Origin: a virus
Lineage: Duplodnaviria > Heunggongvirae > Uroviricota > Caudoviricetes
IMG/VR virus record: IMGVR_UViG_3300046804_001959
Length of the DNA: 64,000 nucleotides
Strand: one strand, 5' to 3'
Every line of letters begins with the position of its first letter. Positions within the stretch are counted from its first letter, which is position 1. Below the pieces are notes generated by a model. That model saw only the letters and a list, made by a program, of their open reading frames with translations, searched no databases and was not told the origin of the DNA. This document shows, piece by piece, positions 23,000 to 39,900 of this stretch. Made by a program: the position numbers and the translations under genes.

Positions 23000-24673
23000 T
23001 CAAAAGTTTCCTTCAAAGAATCCTCTCTTACGATCCGCCCAGAACTCGTCCTTCTGGCCTCCATCGAACAGCGGTTCGTTGACCTCATCATCGTATGCAT
23101 CGTCTCCAGTGCTCATCAGACCGAAAGGCAGCATAGCTTGCTCGAGCATCTTCTCGTTCTGCTCGTAGATCTGCATACGAATGTCAAGGTTCGTGATCTC
23201 TTTCAAGTATGGCTGAGTCGTCAGCCATGCAAATAGAACACAGCACATGGCCATGTCGTCGTTACCTTCTTCGGCTTCGTATGACTGGTTACCTTTGAGA
23301 CTGTTCTTCAGAGAGAATCGATACAGCTCATAGATGGTATCGTAGTCGACGATGATAAACTTATCAGATTCCACCAAAGTCTTGAGAGTAGCGCAACCGA
23401 TTCTCTTCACCTGCTTGGTAGTCTTGACACCGTAGTGAGTCGTGGTAGCAAAGCCACCTGACAGACTCTGTCCAGTACGACCGTTGTTAGCAGTCACCAG
23501 AACTCCGTCGTACTCAAGATCGTAGTGAAGGATATCTGCTACCTGTTGACCGATGTCGTTTGTTTCGACAAGAACCAAGGCGTTGTTGTACTTGATCGCT
23601 GCACCGTAGATGATGTTCGGGTACACCATCGGAGAGATCAAGTTGTTTCGATACGTGGCCACCTGTCGATACGGCATCGTAGATACGTTGACGACAATGA
23701 AGGCAGAGTAGTCGGCTCCTGCTCCTCGAGAAGTATCGACAACGATAGCATAAATGGTATCAGGTTCTGGTTCCTCGTACACCTTCAACCCACCCACATC
23801 CTGTGCGATAGGTTGCTTGTAGACCATGTTACGAAGCTTGCTCGGATGGATCAGTGTGTTCGATGAACCAAGGAACTCGCACTCGTATTCCTGTCTGAAC
23901 TGTTCTTCAGAGGTGTTCGAGATCGTTTCTTCTTTCCAAGCCTCGTCACGGCCAGGAATTTGTGACCAGTGAACGTCGACTCTAGCATAAGCGTTACGAC
24001 CTTCTTCTGACTCTGTCCAGATACGGTAGAACATGTTCATACCGTTCGGTGTAGAGGTGATCAGAACCTTCGAACTCTGACCAGATGAAATAGTAGGATA
24101 GACCGATGCGAAGAACTCGTCCTGAATGTTGGTAGGTACGAACGCGAACTCGTCTAGGTAGACCATGTTCTGAGAAGTACCACGGATGGCGGAAGAAGAC
24201 GTAGCAGACGCAAGGATTTCAGATCCGTTCTCGAGCTTAATATTACCTTTGTTCCATTCTGTAACTCCCATCTGAAGCCACTTTGGAAGGTGTTCGAACA
24301 TGAGCTGGATACGACCAAGAATTTCACGAGCTTGTCTGTCCTTGTTGGCAAGAATAGCGATCGAGTACTCTTCGTTGAAAAGGATCTTCCACAGCAGGTA
24401 GGCAGCAACAGTAGTCGTCTTACCAACCTGACGTGGCATCTTACAGATGACAAATCGATTCTCTTCGAAAGCGAGGATCATCTCCTTCTGGAAATCCCAG
24501 AGAGGGAACATGATCAGACCCTTATCGATGTTGACGATCTTACAGTACGTTAAGATAAAGTAAATCGGATCCTCAGAACACTTGATGTATTCTTGGACCT
24601 GCTCGGGAGTATACTCTACCTTTGTGTCTGCGCGTTTGAGTCTAGGATTACCTAGATAGTTTTCACTCGCCAT
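23000..24673 (-). CDS. gp17: Terminase large subunit gp17
   Basis: RQVGKTT, YLDEFAF, ITSTPNG, FRQEYECEFLGS, DTSRG.G.DYSAF. Confidence 0.98.
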   Translation of the reverse strand: MASENYLGNPRLKRADTKVEYTPEQVQEYIKCSEDPIYFILTYCKIVNIDKGLIMFPLWDFQKEMILAFEENRFVICKMPRQVGKTTTVAAYLLWKILFNEEYSIAILANKDRQAREILGRIQLMFEHLPKWLQMGVTEWNKGNIKLENGSEILASATSSSAIRGTSQNMVYLDEFAFVPTNIQDEFFASVYPTISSGQSSKVLITSTPNGMNMFYRIWTESEEGRNAYARVDVHWSQIPGRDEAWKEETISNTSEEQFRQEYECEFLGSSNTLIHPSKLRNMVYKQPIAQDVGGLKVYEEPEPDTIYAIVVDTSRGAGADYSAFIVVNVSTMPYRQVATYRNNLISPMVYPNIIYGAAIKYNNALVLVETNDIGQQVADILHYDLEYDGVLVTANNGRTGQSLSGGFATTTHYGVKTTKQVKRIGCATLKTLVESDKFIIVDYDTIYELYRFSLKNSLKGNQSYEAEEGNDDMAMCCVLFAWLTTQPYLKEITNLDIRMQIYEQNEKMLEQAMLPFGLMSTGDDAYDDEVNEPLFDGGQKDEFWADRKRGFFEGNF

Positions 24674-25052
24674 CTCTGTTTTGCTTTAAATACTTTTGAA
24701 GTTCGGCAGTCGAGCCTACGAACAGGTTGTTTGTGACTTGCTGAGGAGAAGCAGTAGGATCGTCTTCCATCATCTTCTTCTTTTTGGCCTGCAAGTCAAG
24801 CAAGTCTTTACTCGCTCCGACCATTGTGTTCATCATGGTAGCAAGAACTTCGTATGCTCGAGGATGTTGACTCTGACGAGCCACATCCATGAGATCGAAG
24901 AGCGCTTCTTGCCCTTTATTGATGACTTCCATCATGTTCTCACGAGCATACTCAAAGTCAGCATCTACTTGTGTAGTCATCTTCTTCTCCACCACCGCCG
25001 GCAAGTTTTCACCCGGAGCGATGTTCAAAAACTTATCAAGTTCGTTACTCAT
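24663..25052 (-). CDS. gp16: Terminase small subunit gp16
   Basis: DFEYARENM, QHPRAYEV, VTNNLFVGSTAELQK. Confidence 0.93.
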   Translation of the reverse strand: MSNELDKFLNIAPGENLPAVVEKKMTTQVDADFEYARENMMEVINKGQEALFDLMDVARQSQHPRAYEVLATMMNTMVGASKDLLDLQAKKKKMMEDDPTASPQQVTNNLFVGSTAELQKYLKQNRDGE

Positions 25053-25882
25053 TATAGATTCTCTGTAATTGTATTGATAATACCGTAGTTATCTGTACTT
25101 ATGATTTCATCGTAGTCCACGCTGGCAGCAACGTTGCTTGTCGGTGTACCGTTCGCTGTCAGACCAGGACGAGAAGATACCACGATCGTATCATCAGTGT
25201 TAGTAGTATTTCCGGTTGCCACATCTTCTGGAAGTCTGAACGTGGTCTCAGCATACTTGATCAGTTTCGACTTCTTTGTCGGTCCATACAGCCAACCTTT
25301 AAGAGTAAACGTCAGAGTCCAGATCACTGCTCTTCTCTGTTCGAAGCTGCCTTCGTAAGAGTCTTGGTGTGTGATGCTATTCAAGATAACTGGAATATCT
25401 CGTGGAGCATCGACTTCTGGCACAAGATTTACGCTGACGGTAAAGTCTGGTGTAAAGTATGGGACGATTTGCTCTACTATTCTTGTGCCGTCTTCGGAGT
25501 TCTTCACAAGAATGTTCATCTCGAACTGCATGTCATACGGAACGGGTTGATACTGATACTTGACTTCATCATCCGAACCGGCCGTAGTGGACTGCTTCGT
25601 CAGTTTGTTCAGCGTATTGAGTTTACGAGTCGGATCGTATTCCATTGAAATCATCTCGAATGAGATTCTTGGAAGAACGATACCTACTTGATTGTTGAGA
25701 GTCGGGTTCTGTTCAAGACGTGCTAAAACTTTGTCTTTCGGACCGTAAGTTAAAGGGATCTTCAGCGTCTGAATGACCTCTCCAGTCGTGTTAGTACGAT
25801 TGATGTAGATATCGTTGAACAACGTACCGAACACGATGATGTATTTACGAAGAGTATCATGGCTCCAGGTTCTACCAAACAT
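25052..25882 (-). CDS. gp15: Tail sheath stabilizer / completion protein gp15
   Basis: IIVFGTLFNDI, IPLTYGPKDK, LPRISFE, EQIVPYFTP. Confidence 0.95.
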   Translation of the reverse strand: MFGRTWSHDTLRKYIIVFGTLFNDIYINRTNTTGEVIQTLKIPLTYGPKDKVLARLEQNPTLNNQVGIVLPRISFEMISMEYDPTRKLNTLNKLTKQSTTAGSDDEVKYQYQPVPYDMQFEMNILVKNSEDGTRIVEQIVPYFTPDFTVSVNLVPEVDAPRDIPVILNSITHQDSYEGSFEQRRAVIWTLTFTLKGWLYGPTKKSKLIKYAETTFRLPEDVATGNTTNTDDTIVVSSRPGLTANGTPTSNVAASVDYDEIISTDNYGIINTITENL

Positions 25883-26610
25883 TAAACCACTCCCTCGCTA
25901 AACGGATCTCTTTGTGTCCAGTCGAGGATGCCGTCTCCTTCGATCTCGAACTCTGTGTTGTCTTCGAACGGATCGCCGGCTTGACTTTCGAAATTATAAC
26001 CACCCTGTACGATCGGCGCGCCGTCTTGTGTCAACAGAATGAGACCGTCTGTCGTAGTGATGCTGTATAGATCCAAGTTAAGGCTAAGATCACGTTCGAT
26101 GTCGTCGATGGCTTTGATACCAGTATTCAGCTTCTCGCTGCTGTACTCGAACATCTCGCAAACGAGATCGTACATCTGGATTGCACCCATCTGATAGAAG
26201 ACAGGAGTCTTGTTGACGTACTTGACATACATCAGACGATCAGCCATCGGCAAGTAGATGAGATCGCCTTCTTGAGGACGATCGATCATTTCTAACTGGC
26301 CAATTTCATCCATAAAGTTGCGAACTGAAACCGTAAACGTTACCTGATCTCTAATCTCAAGACCGAACTTCGAGAGGAACTGACCGTCTCCTTCATAGCT
26401 CTCATAGCTACGAATGTACATATCGATCTCATAAGAAGAGTTGTACTCTGAGATAGTATCTTCTTCGTAGATATCGTCTTTTGCCTTGAGAGTTCTTGGA
26501 CAATAGAACACATCATGACCATACATCTTGATAGACTCAAGAACAAGGTTCTCGATCAAGATTTGTTCTTGACTGTTACTAAAGTTGTTAAAATAAAAAT
26601 TAGTCGACAT
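25882..26610 (-). CDS. gp14: Neck protein gp14
   Basis: EQILIENLVLESIKMYGHDVFYCPR, SKFGLEIRD, RPQEGDLIY. Confidence 0.95.
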   Translation of the reverse strand: MSTNFYFNNFSNSQEQILIENLVLESIKMYGHDVFYCPRTLKAKDDIYEEDTISEYNSSYEIDMYIRSYESYEGDGQFLSKFGLEIRDQVTFTVSVRNFMDEIGQLEMIDRPQEGDLIYLPMADRLMYVKYVNKTPVFYQMGAIQMYDLVCEMFEYSSEKLNTGIKAIDDIERDLSLNLDLYSITTTDGLILLTQDGAPIVQGGYNFESQAGDPFEDNTEFEIEGDGILDWTQRDPFSEGVV

Positions 26611-26613
26611 CGA

Positions 26614-27357
26614 TTATCCAATCATATCGAGGACAGGAAGCGAGTAAGAAGAGATCATCTCGTCTTCTAGCTTTCTTCTCTCGGCAACGGCATCGTCGTA
26701 GATCTTCTCTCCGTTAAACTGTACACCGCCAGGTAGAGTCATACCCGTAAACTTTGTAAGGTTCGAACCCCACTGTTCTTTGATCAGAACTGTAGCATAG
26801 TTCTGAAGCCAACGATCGTTGTATGCATCTGTCCATGTATCTGGATCGACTACTTCGTAAGCTTCGACGAGAAGGAACTCACCGACTGCTACTGTGTTCC
26901 AGTCCATGTCAACGTACAAACGATCTTTATGACGCGAGTAACGAATCGGTTGTTTACCGACCAGAAGTTCTGTCATGAGACCAAGGTGTTCCATCACCAT
27001 ATAGTATGGAACAAGAGATACATTTGTGAGGGTGTAGAGGTCGTTCAACGCGATCTGATAACGTATGTTGAAGAGGTCGTCAGAACGAATCGAAGGATCA
27101 CCCATCGAGAATACGCTGACAGCGCCGAGGATATTTTCTGGGAGAGTGATGTACTTGTTAGCTACATCGGTCTCTGTGATAGCGTGCTTGTAGTAGACTT
27201 TCTCTGAACCGTCGAAGTGATAGTCATACCAATAGCGAATCGCTTCGTCTACACGATCATCGACCTGATCGTCGTCTACGTTGATCTCGATTACTGGCTT
27301 GCCTAGCTTACGAAGACAGTATTCTTTGAACTCGGCTTTTGTTGTAGGAGTTGCCAT
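26614..27357 (-). CDS. gp13: Neck protein gp13
   Basis: YCLRKLGKPVIEINVDDDQ, QWGSNLTKF.G..LPGGV.FNG. Confidence 0.96.
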   Translation of the reverse strand: MATPTTKAEFKEYCLRKLGKPVIEINVDDDQVDDRVDEAIRYWYDYHFDGSEKVYYKHAITETDVANKYITLPENILGAVSVFSMGDPSIRSDDLFNIRYQIALNDLYTLTNVSLVPYYMVMEHLGLMTELLVGKQPIRYSRHKDRLYVDMDWNTVAVGEFLLVEAYEVVDPDTWTDAYNDRWLQNYATVLIKEQWGSNLTKFTGMTLPGGVQFNGEKIYDDAVAERRKLEDEMISSYSLPVLDMIG

Positions 27358-27390: not shown

Positions 27391-27411
27391 TATTTATAAG
27401 GCGCATAAATA
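27391..27411. promoter_or_regulatory. Divergent late promoters: TATAAATA (minus, 27391-27398, to gp13) and CATAAATA (plus, 27404-27411, to the oxygenase/GT pair)
   Basis: Back-to-back motifs in the 86-nt divergent gap. Confidence 0.65.
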
Positions 27412-27443: not shown

Positions 27444-27992
27444 ATGAATCTAGACTTGATGATCATCGATAACTTCTACATCAACCCTGATGCCGTCAGA
27501 GCGTATGCTCTGACCCAAGAATTCGATGTAACTGGCAACTATCCAGGTAAAAGAACAAAATCATTCCTCACAGACGACGTCAAACAATGCATTCAAAACT
27601 GGATGTGGTTTGCTGGTCCTGTGACCAATTGGCACGAAGACTCTGGTTACACTGGAGCGTTTCAGTATGCTACCGCATTGGATCGTACATGGATCCATAG
27701 CGATCATACAAGTATGTGGGCAGCAGTATGTTACTTGACTCCTGATGCACCTCCTACCGCGGGAACTGCCATCTATCGTCACAAAGAATCTGGTGAGTAT
27801 CGTTCGGCCGAGAACATCTATGAAGGATACGACTATACTAAATGGGATCGAATCGACGTCGTAGGCAACAAGTACAATCGACTCGTGATCTATCGTGGTG
27901 ACTTGTTCCATGCCAGTCTCGACTACTTCGGCAAGGATCTGTACGATGGTCGTCTTTTCCAGACGTTCTTCTTTGATACGGAGACTTACTGA
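27444..27992 (+). CDS. 2OG-Fe(II) oxygenase-like protein (DUF6445-like)
   Basis: IIDNFY.NPD.VR, NYPG.RT, HxD (IHSD), AAVCYLTP, NRLVIY...LFH, GRLFQTFF. Confidence 0.8.
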   Translation: MNLDLMIIDNFYINPDAVRAYALTQEFDVTGNYPGKRTKSFLTDDVKQCIQNWMWFAGPVTNWHEDSGYTGAFQYATALDRTWIHSDHTSMWAAVCYLTPDAPPTAGTAIYRHKESGEYRSAENIYEGYDYTKWDRIDVVGNKYNRLVIYRGDLFHASLDYFGKDLYDGRLFQTFFFDTETY

Positions 27993-28765
27993 TGAAAGTA
28001 TGTAAGATCATCTGGTCGACGAATCGGCTTGAGTACTTGATCCCAACTCTGAAGTCTCAGAGAGATATGCTAGACTTCAGCCACTGTGAAGTCGAAGGGA
28101 TCTTTATCGATGACATGCCAAAAGGTAGGCATGACGGAACGATGTACGAACTGGCTAAGAACTTCGGCTACACTGAAGTGATTCTGCATCAACAGAACAT
28201 GGGACTTCCGTATGTATGGAACAGCACGTTCGATCTTCTGAAAGAAAGAGACTATGACTATGTCTATCTGTCAGAGGACGACGTTACGTTCAACCATCCA
28301 GTGAAGGTTCTTGATCTCGCCCAGATCTTACACGACAACAAGACGTTTTCTCAGGTATGCTTGACTCGTCAGAAGTGGTATGACCATGAAGAAGAGACTC
28401 AAACCTTGGAAACTGATATCATCTTCGATTCAAGACACAACGTATCAACAGAGTATAGAGCAGAGCTTTCTGATGCATATTTCTGGAGTCTTGCTAGTTT
28501 CTTCTCAAGAGGAATAGCTGATATTCCACATTGTCAAATCGTAGGTGAAAAGAACCTCAGCGAATATGTTGTGGCCACGTCTTTGAAACAGATGAACTTG
28601 AAAACATGCAAGCTCAAGAGTTCAGAAGGAAAGAATCTTGTCACGCACATCGGAGAGTACAGCATAGGAAAGAGAGCTGAGCCTGGTGACCCGCGTTGGC
28701 AAGACTTTGCTGCTTTCGAACCAGAAAAAAAGTACAGCTCTCGACACGGAAATAAGTGGAACTAA
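27992..28765 (+). CDS. Glycosyltransferase, GT-A fold
   Basis: FIDD after the first strand; YDYVYLSEDD (DxD-like); coupled to the upstream oxygenase. Confidence 0.75.
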   Translation: MKVCKIIWSTNRLEYLIPTLKSQRDMLDFSHCEVEGIFIDDMPKGRHDGTMYELAKNFGYTEVILHQQNMGLPYVWNSTFDLLKERDYDYVYLSEDDVTFNHPVKVLDLAQILHDNKTFSQVCLTRQKWYDHEEETQTLETDIIFDSRHNVSTEYRAELSDAYFWSLASFFSRGIADIPHCQIVGEKNLSEYVVATSLKQMNLKTCKLKSSEGKNLVTHIGEYSIGKRAEPGDPRWQDFAAFEPEKKYSSRHGNKWN

Positions 28766-29340
28766 ATTTCATCCCAGAAATTAATAAGAATGCTCTTTCT
28801 GGTTCCGCGCGTGAGTTGATTGATCCAATGATACCATCTACTGCCTTCAAAGTAGATCACATCTCCGGCAATAGGCTTATAAGTTTCGTAGGTGTAGTTT
28901 AGCAGTTCTTTCATCAACGCTTCGGGTGGATGTATCTCGTACTCATAGTCTAACCAACTACGGTGTGAGATGCATAGCTCTCCGCCTTCCATATCTTCTG
29001 CTTCGAGATAGCACGAGATAGTGATAGGCGACATCAGTTTTTCTGGAGGTATCTTATGCCCTTCAGCTAACTTCAGTCTCAACTTATCGTTGAAGTCTAC
29101 ATGAGGCCAAAGACTGTCGTTAACTGATTGCTGCTGAAACCAAAACTCTACGTATCTCTTATCACAGCCAAAACCTTGCCTATCGAGAAACTCTACGATG
29201 GCTTTTTCTGTGTCTGTCTCGGGATTGTTGAGGTCGAAGTAGTTCGTGGTAGCAGTAACTCCGTTCAGAAGTATGGCTCGAAGATCGTCTTCTAATCGAT
29301 CAAACCTTATAATCTTCGAGGTTCCATGGTACATTATCAA
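28762..29340 (-). CDS. 2OG-Fe(II) oxygenase-like protein
   Basis: WPHVD (HxD), ISCYL...EGGEL, YHW.......RKSILIN (distal His and RxS). Confidence 0.7.
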   Translation of the reverse strand: MIMYHGTSKIIRFDRLEDDLRAILLNGVTATTNYFDLNNPETDTEKAIVEFLDRQGFGCDKRYVEFWFQQQSVNDSLWPHVDFNDKLRLKLAEGHKIPPEKLMSPITISCYLEAEDMEGGELCISHRSWLDYEYEIHPPEALMKELLNYTYETYKPIAGDVIYFEGSRWYHWINQLTRGTRKSILINFWDEI

Positions 29341-30010
29341 ATCTTTCTGCTATAAACTTCACGGCTTCTAAGTTCTTATTCGACATTCCGAACTGCTTGA
29401 TGAAAGAAGATGGGATACGTTTCTTATAGTATCCTTGATTGACAAACTTCGAACAGTCTGCTTCTTTACTAGTTATATCGAGTCTTTCGCATATAGAGTT
29501 TAAGTTTTCTTGTCGAAAAAAATCTTCATAAAAGAAGTACAACGGCTTGTCGAAAACGTTGTCGAGAGCCTGAACCGTCTTTTTGTACTTACATGCAAGA
29601 TGATTTTTTACGAGGAACATCGGTGCTTTTGATAGTTTAGATCTACCTCCGCCCAACATATTCCAAGCTGACCATGCTCGTCTTATCGGATCTCTCATGA
29701 TATAGACGGGGACGACTTCGATTCCCCTCTTCTCGAACTCATCTTTGTACAGACGAAAGATATTTTCTGTAGATCCTTCATAGTGTGTAAAGTCTCCAGT
29801 CACCACGTTTAGATTTGAAATGTAATCGAAGAAATCAAAGATGTTAGACCTGAATTCTTTATACCCTTCAAGATCAGGAACAAGATCATCACGCTGAATG
29901 AGGTTCAACTCTTTTCCGAGATCAATATATTCAGTATGAGCTCTAAAATATTCATAAAGCCAAGTAGTACCAGATTTTTCTGCACCTACACATAATAAAA
30001 ATTTTTTCAT
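29300..30010 (-). CDS. Sulfotransferase family protein
   Basis: 5'-PSB motif GAEKSGTTWL, KEL, GDFT..Y, 3'-PB motif MRDPIRRAWS. Confidence 0.8.
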   Translation of the reverse strand: MKKFLLCVGAEKSGTTWLYEYFRAHTEYIDLGKELNLIQRDDLVPDLEGYKEFRSNIFDFFDYISNLNVVTGDFTHYEGSTENIFRLYKDEFEKRGIEVVPVYIMRDPIRRAWSAWNMLGGGRSKLSKAPMFLVKNHLACKYKKTVQALDNVFDKPLYFFYEDFFRQENLNSICERLDITSKEADCSKFVNQGYYKKRIPSSFIKQFGMSNKNLEAVKFIAERFDNVPWNLEDYKV

Positions 30011-30549
30011 ATATTCAGTACGACTTTAATATTTACTACTGGGCCGTTGTCTATTTCTTCAATGATCTGATAGTGTCCTGCATACTGACGTGACCTGATA
30101 AATCTATGCATTACTGAGTTAGTCGGAATATTTCTATACAGAAGCTTCGTTATGCCGAGTTCAGCGTATAATCTGTTTCGATCTAAACGAGCTTGCTCGG
30201 TGTAGTAGAAGTTGCGAGATCCATTCTCATCTGCGGCAGAGAAAGAATGTCTACCATCATGAGTGTCTCCGTCAATAATAAACCCACATGCAAGGCTCAT
30301 ATCTTTCCCGGTATCAATATCAGTGGATTTAATAGCAAGATACTGATCTCCTGCATGATGAAAGTTCAATCCAGGCCATTCATTATTGAAACCGCTGTTC
30401 ATCAAGTCAATGAAGATTTGCTTTCTTTGTGCATCTGTAAACGGAGAGTCGCTAGGCCAGCTGGCATCAATAGCAGACTTTGATCTTTCGTAGAGATCAT
30501 CGAAGTCAATTTCCGACAGACTCGTGATTACACTGTGTACAAGATTCAT
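30007..30549 (-). CDS. Hypothetical protein in enzyme island
   Basis: 180 aa, 4-nt overlaps to both neighbours. Confidence 0.7.
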   Translation of the reverse strand: MNLVHSVITSLSEIDFDDLYERSKSAIDASWPSDSPFTDAQRKQIFIDLMNSGFNNEWPGLNFHHAGDQYLAIKSTDIDTGKDMSLACGFIIDGDTHDGRHSFSAADENGSRNFYYTEQARLDRNRLYAELGITKLLYRNIPTNSVMHRFIRSRQYAGHYQIIEEIDNGPVVNIKVVLNI

Positions 30550-31271
30550 TTCTTAACCCTTTTAGTTCCTACGGCATTTGCAACATAATCTAGCCATCCT
30601 TCTCCGCTAGTATCAGTTGCATGTTCATGGTGCCATTTGTGATGATGCTCTCCGCCTGTCAAGATTCCATACCACGATGGCATCTTTTTCGGACCATTCT
30701 CATCATGATTCAACGTTGATATCGAAAGCGTAAACAAAGAGATCCCAGTAGGGACTACAAAGAGAAATAAGAAAGCGTTCAACGATACGAATAGTAGTAA
30801 GAACGGTACAAGAAGCAGAGGCCAGTAGTAGTCATGATAGAACCTCGTGATCTTGTTCTTACTCAGTCTTACCATCGTTCGAAGATCTCCCGTTTGTCGA
30901 TCTACCCAAAACAAAGGGAACATGGCTTTCCAACCAAGGTACTTCGGTGAGTGTGGATCCTTCTCTGTATCCATGTATTTGTGATGGTTGACATGAGTAG
31001 CACAGAAGTCGATCGGCGATGATATACTACCATAAAAGCCAAGCCCTGTACATATAAATTCGACTACAGGATGCATAGTATGTGTGCGATGCCCATGAAT
31101 ACGATGATACGTTACTACTGCACCTACACAACGCATGAGGAAAAACATGACCAAGGATGCTAACACCCACGGCCATGAGAAATACGTTATAATTGCCCAA
31201 ACTGCAATGATAGGCATTATCAACTGAAGAACAAACAGATGATAAGTTCTATCAACGTTCTGTAAAAACAT
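30546..31271 (-). CDS. Membrane fatty acid desaturase (delta-9/DesC-like)
   Basis: Three His boxes YHRIHGH, HVNHH..D...DPHSP, GEHHHKWHH; two hydrophobic membrane segments. Confidence 0.85.
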   Translation of the reverse strand: MFLQNVDRTYHLFVLQLIMPIIAVWAIITYFSWPWVLASLVMFFLMRCVGAVVTYHRIHGHRTHTMHPVVEFICTGLGFYGSISSPIDFCATHVNHHKYMDTEKDPHSPKYLGWKAMFPLFWVDRQTGDLRTMVRLSKNKITRFYHDYYWPLLLVPFLLLFVSLNAFLFLFVVPTGISLFTLSISTLNHDENGPKKMPSWYGILTGGEHHHKWHHEHATDTSGEGWLDYVANAVGTKRVKK

Positions 31272-31782
31272 CGTGTATTGCTTTCTTTATTACCGATCCA
31301 TGTCTATGACTGTCTAATAAAGGAGTCTGTGTTCCACTCATTCCAAAATAGTCTTCATACCATACGATATTACATACATACTTATCAATGTAGGACTTTA
31401 AACCAAAGTAGTCGTATACAGTAAACTGTATCTCTTTCAACAACACTTTCGTGTCGATATCAGGATAAAGCTTCAACATAAAGTTGGCATAGCTCATAAA
31501 AGCATCGAGCATGTTCTTTCGTAAGATCACATAGTCTGCTTTATCTACTATCAGATATGATGATTTATTTATCATCATGATACTACTTTTCTTATCGTAG
31601 ATAAGATCGGCGAATGCATTCGGAGTAAAATCATGTTGATATTTTGTCTCGTGATACTCCGCCTTCTTGTTAGAGAACATATAAAGTGGGTTTAGTTCTC
31701 CTACGAATGGAATGCCGGTCTGATCTTGTAAGTCAAGACAAAACGCAGTAGCTCCGCACCGAGGAAGCGAGCATACGATCAT
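31252..31782 (-). CDS. Sulfotransferase-like P-loop protein
   Basis: N-terminal VCSLPRCGATAF...GELNP resembles the PRSGST PAPS-binding loop; ILRKNMLDAFMS. Confidence 0.5.
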   Translation of the reverse strand: MIVCSLPRCGATAFCLDLQDQTGIPFVGELNPLYMFSNKKAEYHETKYQHDFTPNAFADLIYDKKSSIMMINKSSYLIVDKADYVILRKNMLDAFMSYANFMLKLYPDIDTKVLLKEIQFTVYDYFGLKSYIDKYVCNIVWYEDYFGMSGTQTPLLDSHRHGSVIKKAIHDVFTER

Positions 31783-32798
31783 TCATCATCTTTCATGAAC
31801 AACGCCGGAGGAAGAGCGTCGTTTTGTGTTGGTTCTTTCTTCATTTCAGTAAAATGATTTGATTTACCAGGAACATCTAAACTATATGTTCGTGACTGTT
31901 CTTCGATCTCGAGATTAATAAAATCAATTCCAAACTCTTGTCGAAACGATTCTAGCATATCTTCACGACAAGTATCTAAGTACTTCTTCCATTGCAGTCG
32001 ACCTATTTCAGAAAGTCTCTGTCTACGTCTTGCTCCAGCTGGTTCTGGTACATTATTTTTTGTATGCCAAGTTTTAGTGTCTGCTAAGTGGTATGAAACC
32101 ATTTTACTATGATGGAACATCTTATAACCGGCTGCATACGACATCATGGCCATCATTACCTCTTCACCTTCGAAGAAGATCTTCGGATCTAATCCGACGT
32201 TATCTACCCAATCTTTATGAGTAAAGAAATTTCCAGCCATAATATGAAACGCAGGTTCAGGCATTTCAGTTGGAGAAATAGGATCTCCGTGTACTGTTGG
32301 AATCAAAGTATCTGGATCGATAGTATAGTATCGTACTTTACATGCCATATCTTCTTGCTCAAGCAAATACGTCTTAATCTCATCTCCATCTATCTGAATA
32401 TCGAACCCTTTACACGAACCAGTAATGACGATTTTATTTGTGCCTGAAATATCCATCGCCCTCTTATAGTCTTCGATCAGCGAACGATCCCAATGCTGAT
32501 CATGTAAAATATGCGAATCGATCTGATAGATGAAATCAAACTCATCTGTCACGTTCAACATGTTTACGTATCTTGCCCATACACATCCATCTGAATATTC
32601 AGGATCGATTCTTTTGTAGATCACGTCGTTGCGGCCTACTAATACGGGTTCTGTGCATGCAAGAGAATCTTCGTAACGAGTCTGTTCGAAGATCGAGTAC
32701 ACGACGTTGTTTCTATTAGATTTGGTTTGCATCATACTCTTGATAGTATGCGGCAGCAATGGATCTTGGTAAGAACAGATCGAAACGAAAATATTCAT
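31779..32798 (-). CDS. Glycosyltransferase resembling hydroxyproline N-acetylglucosaminyltransferase (Skp1 Gnt1 / GT60-like)
   Basis: IFVSICSYQDP..T, SIFEQ, GCVWAR, YQIDSH...WD..LI, AGNFF, FFEGEE motifs. Confidence 0.75.
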   Translation of the reverse strand: MNIFVSICSYQDPLLPHTIKSMMQTKSNRNNVVYSIFEQTRYEDSLACTEPVLVGRNDVIYKRIDPEYSDGCVWARYVNMLNVTDEFDFIYQIDSHILHDQHWDRSLIEDYKRAMDISGTNKIVITGSCKGFDIQIDGDEIKTYLLEQEDMACKVRYYTIDPDTLIPTVHGDPISPTEMPEPAFHIMAGNFFTHKDWVDNVGLDPKIFFEGEEVMMAMMSYAAGYKMFHHSKMVSYHLADTKTWHTKNNVPEPAGARRRQRLSEIGRLQWKKYLDTCREDMLESFRQEFGIDFINLEIEEQSRTYSLDVPGKSNHFTEMKKEPTQNDALPPALFMKDDE

Positions 32799-33535
32799 TA
32801 TTCACTCTCTTTGTCTATTTTAAAAATTTTCTTGGTTCTCATGAACTTTCGATAGTATTGTTTATCATCTCCAGGAATTAGGTTTTTGACTTTATCTACC
32901 TGTTCTTCTGTACCCGGACCGACTGATGCCGTAATAGTTTTATTCAAGAAAGGCATTACATGTAAGAGGGGTTCTCCTGCTTTAATATGCACTTCGCACT
33001 CTCTTCTCGGCATACAAATAAAATTTACCACATGAAATTTGTTATAGTCGACTATACCAGGAATTACATGTAAATCTTCAAAGTGAGATCCATGATACGT
33101 GGCAGGCATAACCATGGCGCTAATGTCTTTTCTGGCGAAGATTTTCCAAGGTGATGGGAATAGAATAGCAGTAGCAGGGACGTTTTCCACTTCGAACGAT
33201 CCATCTAACAAACGCGGATCCATATGAACCCCGGGTTCGAATCCTCGATCACCACGTGTTGCGTTATCTCCAATATACCATGAAACTCCAGCCTTATTTG
33301 CCAAAATATGAATATCTACCCATGCTGGAATAATATATCCATACTGTGAATAGTCCAAAATACCTGGACATCCTGGCATTAAGTGTTTTCCATATTTGTC
33401 TAGTTGAGTGCGATATGTATTCGTCTTAACATCACATGCCCGTTCTACTGTAAAGTTGTAATACGAAAGACGTTTAGAATCTACAAATTCCAAATCTTTT
33501 TTTGATTGAAACCACGATGAAAAGGGATTCTTCAT
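32798..33535 (-). CDS. Conserved phage protein (DUF6065-like, dUTPase-like beta fold suspected), paralog 1
   Basis: CPGILDY...GYIIPAW.D; F.SPW; PGIVDY; I.AGEPL. Confidence 0.6.
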   Translation of the reverse strand: MKNPFSSWFQSKKDLEFVDSKRLSYYNFTVERACDVKTNTYRTQLDKYGKHLMPGCPGILDYSQYGYIIPAWVDIHILANKAGVSWYIGDNATRGDRGFEPGVHMDPRLLDGSFEVENVPATAILFPSPWKIFARKDISAMVMPATYHGSHFEDLHVIPGIVDYNKFHVVNFICMPRRECEVHIKAGEPLLHVMPFLNKTITASVGPGTEEQVDKVKNLIPGDDKQYYRKFMRTKKIFKIDKESE

Positions 33536-34269
33536 TTTCTTGCGGCCCTCAGTTCGTCAGTATAAACTTTTCTACGAGTATTTTGCATCTTCATAATCAT
33601 ATCGATATGATAACGTTCTTTATCTGTAACGCTTCTTATCACGGGCTTCGAAGGTACTGCATCTCTCTTGATCGGAATAGCTAAGATCAGTGGAGTTCCC
33701 GCAGGTAGCAAATCATCGAAGTTAGGAGTATTCCATATAGCTGGAAAGTTAACTTCTTTTGGATAGACATCAGTATCCACGAGGCCCGAAAGACACGTGA
33801 AATGATTATTCATATTATTGATCAACGGAGTGAAGAGAGTCGACCAGCCCGGTGCTGTCTTTACGATCCACGGGTTAATGAACTTGAGAGGAGGAGCTGG
33901 AAATCCAGGAGCGGTTCTCTCTCCAAGTTGACGAATATCATGGAACTCACAGACGTTGATGTTTGGAGAAGATGTGACTTCGATTGTGCTGCAATCGTGA
34001 TTTGATTTTACAGAGAGATCTGCTATCAAGGGAATAACATATCCAAGAGACATCGCATCCAACATAGGCATGCACTTCTTGGCAGTAAACGTATGAGCTC
34101 CGTATTGATCTCGATCGTTATTACCATCGTTGATGACCGGAGGGATTTTCTTGTACCACTCTGGAATGTATTTGGCTGCAGGTCGAGGATGTGGAAGAGT
34201 AGCTACATCATCGCGATGACACATGAACTCAATGATAGATTTCTTCTTAAAAGGATTCCAATTCAACAT
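33532..34269 (-). CDS. Conserved phage protein (DUF6065-like), paralog 2
   Basis: KKCMPMLDAMSLGYVIP; KFINPW..KTAPGWSTLF; GLVDTD; AGTPL. Confidence 0.6.
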   Translation of the reverse strand: MLNWNPFKKKSIIEFMCHRDDVATLPHPRPAAKYIPEWYKKIPPVINDGNNDRDQYGAHTFTAKKCMPMLDAMSLGYVIPLIADLSVKSNHDCSTIEVTSSPNINVCEFHDIRQLGERTAPGFPAPPLKFINPWIVKTAPGWSTLFTPLINNMNNHFTCLSGLVDTDVYPKEVNFPAIWNTPNFDDLLPAGTPLILAIPIKRDAVPSKPVIRSVTDKERYHIDMIMKMQNTRRKVYTDELRAARK

Positions 34270-34856
34270 TCTCTTTCACCCATTACCCATGCTACAAGAC
34301 TTCTACGTAAACCTGATGTGACAGGTGCTACACGATGCGGCATCCATGAAGCAAAGAAGACCATATCACCTTTATTGGGTTTAAACGAAACCTTATTTTC
34401 GAGATTACCGTTATTGACTATTTCAAGCTCTCCGCCTTCGTATTCGCTTGGATCAGAGAGTATGAGAACCATCGAGATTTTACGAACCCATTTCTGCCAA
34501 CCAAACTCTACATCCCAGTGCCATGTATAGTGCTGATTCGGACCATACTTGGTATACTGAAACGCATCGACTCCATCGATGTTGTACATGAAGTTATCAT
34601 AGTTGACGGCAGAAGTGATGCTAGCTATTCGATTGAATAGCCAGTCGCTATGTTGATCGTGATGGATCCATGAGATATCTGAATCACGAGTTTCTGGAGG
34701 AGCATCTACATTTTCATCCAGACCTACTTTTCCCTTTTCAAACTGTTGAAGTTTTTCAAGATCGATGATCTTATCAACTTCTTCTGAAGTAAATCCTCCA
34801 GTCCATACTGCGAAACAGTTTAACTGCTTCCCATACTTAGGAATATTATATGGCAT
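34263..34856 (-). CDS. 2OG-Fe(II) oxygenase, prolyl 4-hydroxylase-like
   Basis: FQYTKY....HYTWHWD, RKISMVL.LSDP.EYEGGEL, PHRVAPVTSGLRRSLVAW. Confidence 0.9.
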   Translation of the reverse strand: MPYNIPKYGKQLNCFAVWTGGFTSEEVDKIIDLEKLQQFEKGKVGLDENVDAPPETRDSDISWIHHDQHSDWLFNRIASITSAVNYDNFMYNIDGVDAFQYTKYGPNQHYTWHWDVEFGWQKWVRKISMVLILSDPSEYEGGELEIVNNGNLENKVSFKPNKGDMVFFASWMPHRVAPVTSGLRRSLVAWVMGEREC

Positions 34857-34878: not shown

Positions 34879-36918
34879 TTATTGAATGGTGATGTCGATG
34901 TATCCTCCGGGAGCCACGGTTACCGAGTGTGTTTGACCATCTGGGTATGAGTAGTAGCTTGCCTTCTGATTATTTATAACAGGTGCAGTGGTTCCTCCGG
35001 AATTTGATCCCGGGAATGTAATGCCAAGGGCAGACGATGGATTTCCTGGAACTGCAGGAGTAGGAGTATTATAGTTCTGTGGACCATTGGTTGCAGGGTT
35101 ATAGTTCTGCGGTCCTCCTGTAGCAGGGTTGTAGTTTTGAGGCCCATTGGTTGCAGGGTTATAGTTTTGAGGCCCATTGGTTGCAGGGTTATAGTTCTGA
35201 GGACCGTTCGTAGGCAAGTTGTAGTTGGCTGGTCCGTTAGTAGGAACATTGTAGTTAGCTGGTCCATTCGCTACATTGTAGTTGGCCGGTCCATTGGCTA
35301 CGTTGTAGTTTTGTGGGCCGTTCGCTACGTTGTAGTTCTGAGGACCATTGGTTGCAGGGTTGTAGTTCTGAGGACCATTGGTTGCAGGATTGTAGTTTTG
35401 CGGCCCGTTTGTTGCAGGATTGTAGTTAGCAGGTCCATTGGCTACGTTATAGTTTTGAGGTCCATTTGTAGCTGGGTTGTAGTTCTGAGGACCATTGGTT
35501 GCAGCATTGTAGTTAGTTGGACCACCTGTAGGAGCATTGTAGTTAGCTGGACCAGGGGCCACATTGTAATTCTGAGGACCATTGGTTGCAGCATTGTAGT
35601 TAGCTGGACCGTTCGTCGGTGCATTGTAGTTAGCTGGACCATTGGCCACATTGTAGTTTTGTGGGCCGGCAGTCGGAGCATTGTAGTTAGCTGGACCGTT
35701 CGTCGGAGCATTGTAATTAGCTGGACCGTTTGTAGCAGCATTAAAGTTTGCAGGACCGTTTGTAGCTGCATTATAGTTAGCTGGACCGTTCGTCGGTGAA
35801 TTATAGTTAGCTGGACCGTTAGTAGCAGCATTGTAGTTTGCGGGTCCAGGCTGCGGCGCGTTGAGATTTCCAGGTTGGTTCGATAAGCCGTATTTTACGA
35901 AGTAAATATACTGCGGGTTACCAGGAACGATGTTGTATCCAGCTACATTTCCTGGAATCTTGTTATAGCCTGATACGCTACCTCCGACGATATTGTATCC
36001 GGATATGTTACCAGGAACGATGTTGTATCCACTTACGTTACCAGGAATGATATTGTAACCGGCTACAGGACCGGGAGTGATGTTATAACCGGCTACAGGA
36101 CCGGGAATCCTGTTGTAAGTTCCAGTTCCTGGATAGATGATGTTATACGTAGAGATGTTACCAGGAACGATGTTGTATCCGGATATGTTACCGGCAATGA
36201 CATTGTAAGTTCCAGTTCCGGGATAGATGATGTTGTAGGTAGCTATAGGTCCTGGATTAATATTGTATATACCGGTAGCGTTTCCTGGAATTTTGTTGTA
36301 TATACCGGTAGCGTTTCCTGGAACGATATTGTATGTGCCGGTTCCAGGATAGATGATGTTGTACGTAGCGATATTACCAGGAATGATGTTATATGTACCG
36401 GTAGCATTTCCTGGAACGATGTTGTAGATTCCCGTGGCATTGCCAGGAACGATATTGTATGTGCCGGTTCCAGGATAGATGATGTTGTAAGTGCCGGTTC
36501 CTGGATAGATGATGTTGTATCCTGCCACCGGATAGATGATGTTATACGTATTTACAGGACCAGGAATGATATTGTAGTTGGCTATAGGGCCAGGAACGAT
36601 GTTGTAGATTCCCGTGGCATTGCCTGGAATGATGTTGTAAGTTCCTGTAGCATTGCCCGGAACAATGTTGTATGTCCCAGTAGCGTTACCTGGAATTACG
36701 TTGTATGTACCGGTTGCGTTTCCAGGAATGATATTGTAGCTACCAGTTCCTGGTCCAGGAATCAGAGCAGTGCCAGTTCCTCCTCGTCCAGATACAAGAA
36801 CGCTGTTACGACCATAAGGAATCGAGATATTACCAGGAGAATTGAACTTCGTAGTCGCTACGCCGGAAGCACGCCACGTTTTCTCAAGTGTAAACTTATC
36901 ACTACCACCAATACCCAT
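34879..36918 (-). CDS. Fibre-associated protein with two mirror-image YN-repeat arms
   Basis: Start probably at 36918 (TAATG overlap with the upstream fibre stop). 27 YNIxPG units, a 25-aa linker, 27 YNxxxNGP units, flanked by a split Gly-rich beta domain. Confidence 0.8.
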   Translation of the reverse strand: MGIGGSDKFTLEKTWRASGVATTKFNSPGNISIPYGRNSVLVSGRGGTGTALIPGPGTGSYNIIPGNATGTYNVIPGNATGTYNIVPGNATGTYNIIPGNATGIYNIVPGPIANYNIIPGPVNTYNIIYPVAGYNIIYPGTGTYNIIYPGTGTYNIVPGNATGIYNIVPGNATGTYNIIPGNIATYNIIYPGTGTYNIVPGNATGIYNKIPGNATGIYNINPGPIATYNIIYPGTGTYNVIAGNISGYNIVPGNISTYNIIYPGTGTYNRIPGPVAGYNITPGPVAGYNIIPGNVSGYNIVPGNISGYNIVGGSVSGYNKIPGNVAGYNIVPGNPQYIYFVKYGLSNQPGNLNAPQPGPANYNAATNGPANYNSPTNGPANYNAATNGPANFNAATNGPANYNAPTNGPANYNAPTAGPQNYNVANGPANYNAPTNGPANYNAATNGPQNYNVAPGPANYNAPTGGPTNYNAATNGPQNYNPATNGPQNYNVANGPANYNPATNGPQNYNPATNGPQNYNPATNGPQNYNVANGPQNYNVANGPANYNVANGPANYNVPTNGPANYNLPTNGPQNYNPATNGPQNYNPATNGPQNYNPATGGPQNYNPATNGPQNYNTPTPAVPGNPSSALGITFPGSNSGGTTAPVINNQKASYYSYPDGQTHSVTVAPGGYIDITIQ
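34971..34978 (-). promoter_or_regulatory. Candidate late promoter TATAAATA within the 3' end of the repeat gene, about 115 nt upstream of the P4H-like gene
   Basis: Exact consensus, but inside a CDS so chance occurrence is possible. Confidence 0.45.
35056..35835 (-). repeat. Coding tandem repeat arm 2: 27 units of 27/30 nt (YN[AP][AP]TNGP[AQ]N and YNVANGP[AQ]N)
   Basis: Counted from translation. Confidence 0.9.
35911..36738 (-). repeat. Coding tandem repeat arm 1: 27 units of 27-33 nt (YNIxPGNATGT, YNIIYPGTGT, YNIxPGxxxG)
   Basis: Counted from translation. Confidence 0.9.
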
Positions 36919-39900
36919 TACGCGGCGCCCTTCACCGTGAGTGATCCGATCCAACTTGTTCCACCGTCATAAGTCATGAGTGACCAGATGTCGATAGCGT
37001 TGGCTGTTGTCGTTGCAGGAGGAGCTGAACCTCCTGGCCATTTGATTCCTGTCGGCCAAGTGATCGTACGACCACCTGTGGCATCTTGCTTGGCAACGAT
37101 AGTTCCTGCCCACATTCTTGTGCTCGGTGGAACATTCGATGGCGAGATGGTAATGCTTCCTGTAAGAGTCAGCTCGAAGAAGTTGGCCGCAGTACAATCC
37201 ATCGTCCATGTACCAGTAGTAGCGGTGTTAGCTACTTCTGCTTCCGTGTAACCAGTTAGAACCGGGTTGGTGATGTTGTTGTTTGCCATGATCAGGTTGG
37301 CAGACAGCGTAGTAGTACCGGATACAGCAAAGTTGCTGTTCCATGTCAGAGGACCTGCACCAGCACGTCCGAGCTTGATAGCGTTGTTTTCGTTACCGAA
37401 TACGATGTAACCGTTGTTGGCGTTTTGCTGACCCATGACACGGACAGTATCTGCTTGGTTTACGTCACCGAACCAAGCGTCATCACCGATCTTGACGTTC
37501 GTTCCACCACCGTTGTTGCTTGTCAAGATCTGATCGACTTGGAGTGCGGTGTTGACGTGAATACCAGTGCTGTTAACAGTCAGCGTAGAACCAGTAGTAA
37601 CACCGATGGTTCCAGTAGAAGTGATCGTTCCGCCAGATAGACCGTTTGCTGTAGCTACAGATGTAACACCGGCATCGTCTACTCCCCAGTAGACCGATGT
37701 ACCGTTCGAGTGCAGAACATGACCGGATGTACCAAGCGAGTTGTTAGCGTAGATGCCAACACTTGCCATGTCGATGTCGGTGTTGAAACGGAACGCGCCG
37801 CCTTGTACACCCGCATTCGAGTTGGCATAGATGTTGAAGGCAGGACGAGCACCAGCCGTAGTATTGGCCATGTACAATACGAGGTTGTTATCGCTTTGAA
37901 GCTCGAAGTATGCACCTGTAGCGGCGCTGTTCGATAGGAAGTGTAGTCTCTTGCCGTTGCCAAGCGTTGCGTGTGTTGCGTTGGCTACGAAGTTCGAACC
38001 TACACTCAGTACTGCCGAGTTGACCGAAGATGTCGCGTTGACAAATCCAGTAATCGTAGTGTTACCAGCTGCAAGAGTAGTGATACCTGTTACTGCTTGA
38101 GCAGCGCTTGTCGACTGGATAGTGGTTGTGCCAAGATACAGAGCTGGAAGTCGAGCGGCTGCAAGTGTTCCAGTGCTGATATTCGTAGCGTTGGTGTAGT
38201 AAGCAGCTGCTTGTCCACCTAGATTTGTAGAGTTGTTAGCAGTCAGCGCGCTGTTAGCGTTGATTGCACCTTCGGATTTACCGAATGCATACGTAGCATT
38301 GTTCGCAGTGCCCGTAAACGCAGTGGTGTTGATCGTTCCATAAACAGAGGTGTTTCCGATATACAGAGTGTTTGCTTGGAATGCAGCGATACGGAAAGTT
38401 GCGTTTGCGGTGTCGATGTAAGCAGATGCATCTGGTTCTGGAGAATAGTTGTCAAAGACTTTCCAAACACCGTCTGTGGCATCACGGAAGAAACCTGCGT
38501 GATGGTAAGTTCCGTCGTTGTAATTACCAGCAAAACCAAGATCAGGGTTTGATACAGTATTGTTCGCGTTCAGATAGATCATGTTATCCTGAACGGAGAG
38601 AGTAGCAGTATTGACCGTAGTCGTCGTACCTTGGACGGTGATGTTACCTGTTACAGTGATGTTACCGAAGGTGACTGTATCAGTAGTACGAACGTCTTGG
38701 TTCATGCGATACGGTAGACGTGCTTCAGCGAGAGTACCGTTGTTTGCATTCGAAGCGTTCGCTGCAAAGATAGTAGCGTTCGTATATGCAGCTGCAGCGT
38801 TTGCTACCATTGCTGTATTCGCTGTGCCGATCTTTGTGTCTACATATGATACTGCATTGGTATAAGCAGTAGCAGCATTACCGGTAATGGCAGAGTTGGC
38901 AGTACCGATCTTGGTGTCTGTATAGGTTACAGCATTACTGTATGCCGCTCCGGCGTTCGCGGTAATATTGGCTTGAATAGATGCAAGACTACTACCACCT
39001 ACGTTTAGAGCATTATTCGCTGTACCTGAAAACGATGTGGCGTTCAGCGTAGAGTTAGCTAATGTTGTACCGATCGTCAGCGCTGTAGAGTTAGCAATAA
39101 GAGACGATGATGTTGAATTAATATTAGCGATCTGAATGACGTTAATAGAGTTACCGCTATTAAGTGTAACGTTAGCAGAAAATGATACGATACCGTTTAC
39201 AGAATATCCACCAGCAGTAACAAACGAGGTGGCATTTGTATAAGCTGCAGCTGCGTTCGCTACGATAGCTGAGTTAGCGGTTCCGATCTTGGTATCTGTA
39301 TAGCTGACAGCGTTAGTGTATGCAGTAGCTGCATTGCCAGTGATGGCGCCGTTAGCAGTCAGAATCTTGCCATCTGTATAGGACACTGCATTAGTGTATG
39401 CAGTAGCTGCGTTTCCAGTAATAGCACCATTGGCGGTCAGAATCTTGCCATCTGTATAGGACACTGCGTTGGTGTATGCAGCTGCAATTGCAGTGTTAGC
39501 AGTTCCGATCTTTGTGTCGGTATAGCTTACTGCATTTGTATAAGCTGCAGCTGCTGCGGTTGCTGCAGTCTGAGCGTTTGTGTTTGCAGTGATAGCTGCG
39601 TCGTAAGCTGTCTTGACAGAAGCTGCAGAACCAGCAGCAGTCGTAGAAGTGTTTGCTACCGAGTCGACAAGAACCACTGCACCCGCAGAAGTTGAGTTAC
39701 CGGCTGGAAGTCGAGCTGAGTTGACGGTTCCGGAAGTCAGGTTTGTAGCGTTAGCTGCGATAGCGATTGCATTGGTGTATGCAGCACCTGCAGCAGTTAA
39801 AGCGGTTTGAGCATTTGTATTAGCAGTAACAGCCGTATCATAAGCAGTTTTTACACTGTTTGCAGTAGCTACGTAAGAAACTGAAGTGTTGTTGACTGCA

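Follow-up and report, generated by a model that had tools for sequence, protein, structure and literature searches.

A mobile hydroxylase cassette linked to a proline-rich fibre-module protein in an uncultured T4-like phage: candidate enzymes for fibre modification

An eleven-gene island between neck and fibre genes

The IMG/VR virus record IMGVR_UViG_3300046804_001959 contains a stretch of 64,000 nucleotides (nt), here called the window, in which eleven tightly packed open reading frames (ORFs), A to K, fill positions 27444-34856 and separate the head-tail adaptor/neck genes from the fibre genes. The island lies in the DNA of an uncultured T4-like myophage. Its closest cultured relatives, to which TerL identity reaches at most about 57%, are cyanomyophages and the Methylophilales phage Melnitz, and megablast matched the island to none of 50,697 phage records. 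On one flank are gp16 (terminase), gp15, gp14 and a gp13-type head-tail adaptor at 24663-27357, and on the other are tail-fibre proteins, fibre-assembly proteins and a collagen-like fibre. Gene families were assigned by Pfam, NCBIfam and PHROG matches, and 21 proteins in and around the island were scanned.

All eleven ORFs listed in a preliminary description of this DNA are present. On the minus strand, the nine genes from K to C follow one another without a gap, each overlapping the next by 1-41 nt, and K starts 22 nt past the end of the repeat-fibre gene L (34879-36918, minus strand), so the nearly continuous chain from the proline-rich fibre gene was described correctly. G+C content is 0.40-0.42 in the island (28001-34000) and 0.45-0.48 in the flanking structural genes, a difference consistent with acquired or fast-turnover DNA.

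When would these genes be expressed? The late promoter motif TATAAATA lies at 34971-34978 on the minus strand, inside the 3' end of L and 115 nt upstream of K, and the late-type motif CATAAATA at 27404-27411 on the plus strand, 32 nt upstream of A; both are where they had been reported. The window holds 8 copies of TATAAATA (1.2 expected), all on the minus strand, which is the coding strand, and 20 copies of ATAAATA (6.8 expected), 19 of them on the minus strand. The lone plus-strand ATAAATA (CATAAATA) precedes the only plus-strand genes, A and B. Close relatives retain NATAAATA at an equal distance from K. About half of the more distant K genes do not have a NATAAATA-type motif and are therefore presumably transcribed by read-through from the fibre gene. 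Late expression of K and of A-B, as proposed earlier, is consistent with these T4-type promoter motifs. A further ATAAATA at 31566-31572 (minus strand), within G and about 295 nt upstream of F, may be an internal promoter that divides G-H from F-C. We disregarded a sigma-70-like site at 34873-34845 (score 11/12) because its -10 box falls within the K coding sequence; moreover, sigma-70-like sites overall occur at the shuffle expectation, which is a further ground to discard it.

Core enzymes and a mobile cassette

K (34263-34856, minus strand) is a prolyl-4-hydroxylase (P4H)-type 2-oxoglutarate (2OG)/Fe(II) oxygenase. It matches the 2OG-FeII_Oxy_3 profile with 71.3 bits against a cut-off of 27 (E 1.4e-19) and carries the HxD...H triad and the basic 2OG-binding residue of the family: in 31 homologs, H113, D115 and R184 never vary, and at least 90% keep H174. 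K is predicted to be catalytically intact. By sequence, the solved structures closest to K are bacterial PKHD-type hydroxylases, and the P4H of PBCV-1 (5c5t) is also matched (E 3.8e-5). The 2OG-FeII_Oxy_3 family includes enzymes with other or unknown substrates (PKHD/PiuC), and it is gene context alone that points to proline as the target of K.

Which protein would K act on? L is a repeat protein of the fibre module, rich by its translation in proline, asparagine, tyrosine and glycine. It has 89 prolines, of which 33 stand in X-Pro-Gly, the commonest proline context both in L and in most of its homologs. X-Pro-Gly is the canonical recognition unit of collagen-type P4Hs. The L family consists of conserved N- and C-terminal segments around a hypervariable two-arm repeat region that is 8-25% proline and also rich in asparagine, tyrosine, glycine and threonine. 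The collagen-like fibre S (45301-47031) has proline only in the Xaa position and not one X-Pro-Gly, and in the giant collagen-like proteins of relatives proline is almost exclusively Xaa (G-P-Q), with no Pro-Gly. M (36918-41225, minus strand), a long tail fibre of 1435 amino acids (aa) whose residues 1298-1434 align with tail-fibre PHROGs, is proline-poor. L is therefore the candidate substrate. The fibres had been named collectively as targets of proline hydroxylation, and that proposal fits L but not M; S, a poor substrate by the canonical rule, is unlikely to be the main one.

H (31779-32798, minus strand) is a predicted polypeptide N-acetylhexosamine (HexNAc) transferase of glycosyltransferase (GT) family 60. 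It matches PF11397 (GlcNAc/GT60) with 91.6 bits (cut-off 21, E 8.9e-26). The AlphaFold2 (AF2) model of H (24 homologs) has a mean predicted local distance difference test score (pLDDT) of 86.5, and among Swiss-Prot models its fold comes closest to that of Dictyostelium Gnt1 (E 1.6e-19, template-modelling score (TM) 0.66, 20% identity), the Skp1-hydroxyproline N-acetylglucosamine (GlcNAc) transferase. Among the matches listed after Gnt1, every one is a polypeptide N-acetylgalactosamine (GalNAc) transferase (GT27), as are all 50 top PDB fold matches. The DxH motif D94-S95-H96 and the pair E212-E213 are invariant in the 24 homologs. A GT-A fold, a DxD/DxH metal motif and nearest kin in Gnt1 and GT27 place H in GT60, and the enzyme is probably catalytically intact. 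To our knowledge, all characterised GT60 and GT27 members glycosylate hydroxyl groups of polypeptides. The kinship seen in the model is the strongest argument that the acceptor would be a protein rather than a lipid, a glycan or DNA.

S contains many G-x-T triplets (GAT, GPT, GST, GLT), which resemble the threonine-rich, O-glycosylated collagen region of Bacillus BclA. By this analogy, threonines of S are possible acceptors for a GT60/GT27-type enzyme even without hydroxyproline.

Between K and H lie J (33532-34269) and I (32798-33535), two minus-strand DUF6065 paralogs (Pfam DUF6065 for J, phrog_7084 for I, hhalign 100% between the families). The AF2 model of J (pLDDT 92) shows a barrel like that of dUTPase and dCTP deaminase (VIA Z 9.0-9.7, Foldseek E ~1e-3) with helical N- and C-terminal extensions; a dUTPase-like fold is likewise predicted for I. 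J retains a segment resembling dUTPase motif III ('GLVDTDVY'); by eye, the motif IV Arg/Gln and the C-terminal P-loop-like motif V are not recognisable. We rejected the idea that DUF6065 is a cupin or an oxygenase, since the model of J shows the dUTPase-like barrel. At E values of 1e-3 or lower the family counts 3,296 cluster representatives, and the Atlas clusters sampled are mostly viral. Tandem J-I-like fusions or duplications exist, and Atlas cluster annotations also give viral fusions that join DUF6065 to 2OG-FeII_Oxy_3 and Pseudomonadota fusions that join it to Cupin_8/JmjC. A word-indexed search for longer DUF6065 proteins found none, and in an exhaustive search the long DUF6065 matches were tandem duplications, with no oxygenase fusions; it is therefore the Atlas annotations alone that document these fusions. 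A predicted K-J complex scored 0.00, which counts neither for nor against binding of the two proteins. Overall, DUF6065 appears to be a partner of protein-type oxygenases. DUF6065 homologs of about 30% identity also occur in many haloarchaeal myoviruses (HF1, HF2 and the HRTV series; for example Halorubrum tailed phage 7, NC_021335.1 26718-27608), where the gene lies between thymidylate synthase/DNA polymerase genes and convergent baseplate/fibre genes, an ambiguous context.

Could the core genes instead form a nucleotide or DNA module? Under such a scheme K would hydroxylate a pyrimidine, J and I would handle the nucleotide and H would supply a sugar, on the model of the base J and glucosyl-hydroxymethylcytosine pathways. 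The fold of J and its motif-III-like segment fit this idea, as do the thymidylate synthase and DNA polymerase genes that adjoin DUF6065 in haloarchaeal viruses and the annotation of the S-CREM1 homolog of J as a triphosphate nucleotidohydrolase. However, K is of the P4H/PKHD type and not of the TET/JBP type, H resembles polypeptide transferases and not DNA glucosyltransferases, and J appears to lack the motif IV Arg/Gln and motif V. Moreover, the genes stand in a late fibre operon, and in about 50 phage loci the cassette follows fibre genes rather than replication genes. We consider a DNA module highly improbable.

How general is the association of these genes? tblastn and phmmer maps covered 83 IMG/VR loci found through H and K and about 45 further loci found through a DUF6065 profile (compared loci or contigs carry codes such as L006, L079 and L148, and the letter L by itself always means the repeat protein). 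Nearly all relatives have the order fibre gene, L-family proline-rich protein, K, J, I, mostly followed by H. This order is present in about 50 distinct relatives and persists while K identity drops from 90% to about 37%, and the C-terminal domain of M travels with L, K, J and I. For 34 of 38 distinct K genes the upstream neighbour on the same strand has at least 8% proline, against a background of 22.5% of ORFs (Fisher 1e-16), a statistic that, like the synteny in general, is inflated by the shared descent of many of the compared loci. Co-occurrence of the island with proline-rich fibres in related genomes had been suggested as a check, and it bears out the association. H is absent from about one-third of the cassettes. 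The hydroxylase's obligatory partners seem to be the two DUF6065 proteins, which had been listed among three unknowns and are the most constant members of the island.

The block adjoins the neck genes here and lies amid fibre genes elsewhere, where it is followed by a fibre-assembly protein and a collagen-like protein of 1,000-2,000 aa. L006-type contigs carry the whole block inverted relative to gp13-A-B, and L148-type contigs have the duplicated arrangement Pro-rich-K-H-Pro-rich-K-J-I. A prophage of Undibacterium sp. Rencai35W (L166, NZ_JBMPPC010000001.1 813672-826379) encodes a fibre with the C-terminal domain of M, a 210-aa L-family protein, K, J and I, with no GT60, behind its capsid and adaptor genes. 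This prophage is not T4-like because its capsid is of the Phage_capsid_3 family and its adaptor of the SU10 type; it hints at Betaproteobacteria as hosts. Since the linkage survives rearrangement, duplication and a change of phage type, the cassette moves as a unit with its proline-rich protein.

Two P4H-type genes are found in each of L148, L149, L159 and L161. In L148-type contigs the first is paired with a GT60 gene alone, behind a proline-rich protein of about 510 aa, and the second with two DUF6065 genes, behind a repeat protein of about 850 aa; the hydroxylase-glycosyltransferase and hydroxylase-DUF6065 pairings are therefore separable. L006 (11682-18616; also L008, L009 and L144) has a second, oppositely oriented module downstream of the island. 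It is headed by a Gly/Asn/Pro-rich protein of more than 1000 aa with G-N-P-G units, a middle rich in Cys and Gly and a C-terminal end like that of L, and continues with a 101-aa gene, a J-like DUF6065 gene, a K-like P4H-type gene, a 152-aa gene and two 2OG_Oxy_5 genes.

A position behind fibre genes is also what would be expected if K, J, I and H were fibre-assembly factors or particle components that have enzyme-like folds and perform no chemistry, like T4 gp38 and gp57. T4-like phages often encode chaperones or adhesins immediately behind their fibre genes, and fibre-assembly PHROG families lie nearby. The dUTPase fold, moreover, usually forms trimers, like fibres, and herpesviruses have put it to use in non-enzymatic proteins (pp71, ORF10). 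However, the metal- and 2OG-binding residues of K and the DxH and EE residues of H are invariant down to 36-40% identity, unlike what lost catalysis would leave, and DUF6065-oxygenase fusions occur in bacteria outside any fibre context. We give this explanation a low probability.

Variable genes and sulfotransferases

The remaining genes are less firmly assigned. A (27444-27992, plus strand) is a DUF6445 protein (Pfam E 1.2e-14; phrog_1644) with an HxD...H pattern like that of 2OG oxygenases, and its 'WIHxDH' and 'GDLFHAS' segments are conserved in relatives. B (27992-28765, plus strand) is a probable, weakly matched GT-A glycosyltransferase: it scores 18.5 bits against GT2, below the cut-off of 23.3 (E 0.002), and matches the glycosyltransferase family phrog_2456 (E 2e-4). 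Its 'FIDD' and 'SEDD' motifs are invariant, and we kept the label 'GT-A-like'. C (28762-29340, minus strand) is a marginal 2OG-Fe(II) oxygenase, with 27.6 bits against the 2OG-FeII_Oxy_3 cut-off of 27, an hhalign probability of 89.9% to the K family and a conserved HVD...H...R pattern. The island had been credited with three 2OG oxygenases and two glycosyltransferases; K and H are solid members of their families, but C sits at the cut-off, A is a DUF6445 protein with the HxD...H pattern, and B falls short of the GT2 cut-off.

D (29300-30010, minus strand) is just over the cut-offs of two sulfotransferase profiles (Sulfotransfer_3, 27.5 bits against 27; Sulfotransfer_1, 23.6 against 22). It has the 'EKSGTTW' and 'RDPIRRAWS' (RDPxxRxWS) segments typical of binding to 3'-phosphoadenosine 5'-phosphosulfate (PAPS), in which G14, R106-D107-P108 and S114 are invariant. 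Profile matches and motifs for the 5'-phosphosulfate and the 3'-phosphate together make D a PAPS-dependent sulfotransferase by sequence, and the Sulfotransfer_1 genes of L079 and L081 can be aligned with it. G (31252-31782, minus strand), the second sulfotransferase of the preliminary description, is a lead only. Its 'SLPRCGAT' segment is invariant and its likeness to sulfotransferases is a language-model similarity (Atlas feature similarity of 0.93 to viral sulfotransferase clusters), but hhalign found no relationship between G and D, and G is without Pfam, hhalign or PDB support.

E (30007-30549, minus strand), the last of the three unknowns, has no Pfam match. Its resemblance to GNAT clusters in the Atlas (structural TM 0.6-0.66, features 0.94) is a lead to an acetyltransferase fold, and E is probably an acetyltransferase. 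F (30546-31271, minus strand) resembles membrane di-iron desaturases and hydroxylases. It scores 32.7 bits against the NCBIfam DesA family, far under the cut-off of 400 (E 4e-8), with no Pfam match, and at 241 aa it is short for that family; its histidine boxes 'HRIHGH', 'HVNHH' and 'HHHKWHH' are conserved and it has transmembrane segments. No homolog of F was detectable in cultured phages, and nothing therefore connects F with the cyanophage desaturases described in the literature. A membrane protein of this kind would fit lipid chemistry better than virion modification, so the desaturase does not sit well in the pathway to which it had been assigned. Sequence searches of solved structures with H, A, C, D, G and B and with profiles A4-A6 gave nothing useful for these genes.

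C to G are kept in most close relatives and swapped for other enzymes in others. In their place, L079 and L081 have a CxxCxxCC protein, a 2OG_Oxy_5 protein, a PhyH protein, a PrmA/Methyltransf_16-type methyltransferase and a Sulfotransfer_1 protein. No evidence ties all eleven genes into the single cascade as which they had been read. In cassettes without H, a Sulfotransfer_2 gene splits K from J (L082, L124 and L140 types) or sits immediately in front of K (L143). Neighbours such as these methyltransferase, oxygenase and sulfotransferase genes are of the protein-modifying type, in keeping with a protein target. Three sulfotransferase families thus recur inside or beside the core, an independent but purely contextual argument in favour of the sulfation step proposed earlier, and also an indication that sulfate may go to something other than a sugar.

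Do the variable genes serve the host rather than the virion? The island could be a host-directed auxiliary-metabolic island that remodels envelope lipids, lipopolysaccharide or surface glycans, or consumes 2OG, with the fibre region merely tolerating insertions. Its lower G+C, as is often seen in acquired DNA, and the variation of C to G between relatives may leave room for such functions, and F, as a membrane di-iron desaturase-like protein, fits them. Many members of sulfotransferase families 1, 2 and 3 act on carbohydrates or small molecules. Moreover, arrays of 2OG oxygenases are a known feature of cyanomyophage variable regions, and DNA repair or control of 2OG levels has been proposed for such oxygenases (PMC3037559). 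However, chance insertion does not explain why the core order outlasts inversion, duplication and a move into an SU10-like prophage. The closest kin of H are without exception polypeptide glycosyltransferases, and apart from F the family matches of the island include none of the transporter, flippase, lipid-carrier or nucleotide-sugar synthesis genes that envelope clusters contain. We regard a host-directed island as unlikely.

The enzymes might also modify host proteins for takeover of the cell, for example translation factors or ribosomal proteins, on which bacterial and eukaryotic PHD/OGFOD-type hydroxylases act. The PKHD-type matches of K and the PrmA-like methyltransferase of variant islands, an enzyme of the kind that modifies ribosomal proteins, would agree with this. 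A 2OG oxygenase has been reported among the virion-associated proteins of a cyanomyovirus (PMC12801897), and delivery into the host cell is thus possible. However, the promoter motifs are late-type and not early-type, and this explanation leaves unexplained why K should be strictly adjacent to a hypervariable proline-rich protein across unrelated phage types whose hosts are probably different. We find it quite improbable.

A predicted pathway for fibre modification and its known counterparts

Altogether, we favour a reading in which K, with J and I, hydroxylates L late in infection in the host cytoplasm, and HexNAc and/or sulfate is then added; we put its probability at roughly 0.55. The observations themselves comprise gene content, intact catalytic motifs, late-type promoter motifs, the kinship of the H fold with Gnt1 and the polypeptide GalNAc transferases, and the conserved, mobile order L-K-J-I(-H); which protein and which residue are modified, which sugar is donated, where sulfate would go and what the fibre gains are inferred from them. 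The core of the island would act on the phage's own L before or during fibre assembly. K would hydroxylate prolines in the L repeats, most plausibly those in X-Pro-Gly, and J and I would act with K as a subunit, a substrate adaptor or a second catalyst. H would attach HexNAc either to the hydroxyl so created or to Thr/Ser. The sulfotransferase D and perhaps G, the GNAT-like E, the oxygenases C and A and the GT-A-like B would be variable accessories that may elaborate the modification or have other targets, and F probably serves a different, lipid target. Such modification could stabilise polyproline-type repeats, alter receptor binding or shield the fibre.

Several observations weigh against hydroxylation and decoration of L. 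B, C, D, F and G have weak or marginal family matches, and F is an integral-membrane, lipid-type enzyme. It is position in the fibre module alone that places L in the virion. Some L homologs are without X-Pro-Gly and have Tyr-Pro-Ile/Val repeats instead, and shared descent lends the synteny more weight than it deserves. K-like oxygenases are scattered in cultured T4-like aquatic phages, for example beside a helicase, and the K family is therefore not intrinsically fibre-linked. Finally, J and I have a nucleotide-hydrolase-like fold, and their haloarchaeal-virus relatives adjoin thymidylate synthase and DNA polymerase.

A broader proposal goes beyond this island and is offered tentatively, at less than even odds: that a portable cassette gives many tailed phages a hypervariable, proline-rich fibre-tip protein bearing hydroxyproline and decorated with HexNAc and/or sulfate, and that DUF6065 is a new dUTPase-fold partner of the hydroxylase or a second catalyst. 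Why would this matter? Few 'auxiliary' genes of aquatic phages are as common as those for P4H-type and other 2OG oxygenases, whose use the literature calls cryptic (PMC9301287; PMC3037559); a Baltic Sea virome study says that what viruses use prolyl 4-hydroxylase for 'remains cryptic' (PMC9301287). The constant yet mobile association with a single proline-rich fibre-module protein provides a concrete substrate hypothesis for the P4H-type genes and marks DUF6065 as an oxygenase partner, and the Undibacterium prophage offers a cultured host as an experimental handle. If the proposal is true, receptor-binding fibres could bear hydroxyproline, sugars and sulfate that are invisible in the sequence, with consequences for host-range prediction, fibre stability and structural modelling. 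It would also explain the purpose of the abundant phage 'prolyl 4-hydroxylase' genes, extend hydroxyproline-linked glycosylation from eukaryotes and giant viruses to bacteriophages, and mean that eukaryote-style extracellular-matrix chemistry is made in the bacterial cytoplasm. Searches of the literature turned up no publication dealing with DUF6065, with phage GT60 enzymes or with hydroxyproline in phage fibres.

How does the island compare with known systems? The Skp1 pathway of Dictyostelium and Toxoplasma (PhyA and Gnt1), to which it had been likened, also joins a cytoplasmic 2OG/Fe(II) P4H-family enzyme to a GT60 enzyme, and that part of the comparison stands. However, one proline is modified there, whereas here a repetitive phage protein has dozens of candidate sites. 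There is no Skp1 and none of the later transferases (PgtA/AgtA, Glt1/Gat1) among the 21 proteins, two obligatory DUF6065 neighbours are present, sulfotransferases replace or join the glycosyltransferase, and K need not be a PhyA ortholog.

Viral precedents cover parts of the scheme. PBCV-1, which infects a eukaryotic alga, combines a small, monomer-sized P4H (vCPH, 5c5t) with proline-rich repeat proteins; we know of no link to fibre-gene order, DUF6065 partners, GT60 or sulfotransferase in that virus. Mycobacteriophages, in work by Freeman et al. from 2023, reportedly encode glycosyltransferases that are thought to decorate the phages' own structural proteins in the bacterial cytoplasm. Their glycans are said to be O-linked to capsid and tail-tube proteins and to involve other GT families, with no hydroxylase or sulfotransferase. 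Here, in contrast, the proposed modification would begin with an oxidation, and its target would be a repeat protein at the fibre tip.

J itself recalls trimeric dUTPases in its beta-barrel (Z up to 9.7) and motif-III-like segment, and the tandem J-I-type duplications recall the duplicated monomeric dUTPases of herpesviruses. Unlike dUTPases, J apparently lacks motifs IV and V, carries helical extensions and belongs to a family found in a fibre-gene context or fused to oxygenases.

The cyanophage clusters Syn9 gp43-gp50 and S-CREM1 gp70-gp80 share with the island a DUF6065 gene that stands after fibre-assembly or collagen-like genes and before 2OG/JmjC arrays. In Syn9 gp41-gp50 (L163) and S-CREM1 gp67-gp80 (L164), DUF6065 is followed by up to nine consecutive 2OG/JmjC oxygenase genes, and the 'minor coat protein' genes of both phages are of the DUF6445 type, like A. 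The clusters differ from the island in the tryptophan halogenases ahead of their DUF6065 gene, and no GT60 was detected in them. The function of the cyanophage 2OG-oxygenase clusters has not been assigned (PMC3037559); they look like related systems. What is distinctive here is the extended set of enzymes around the core cassette.

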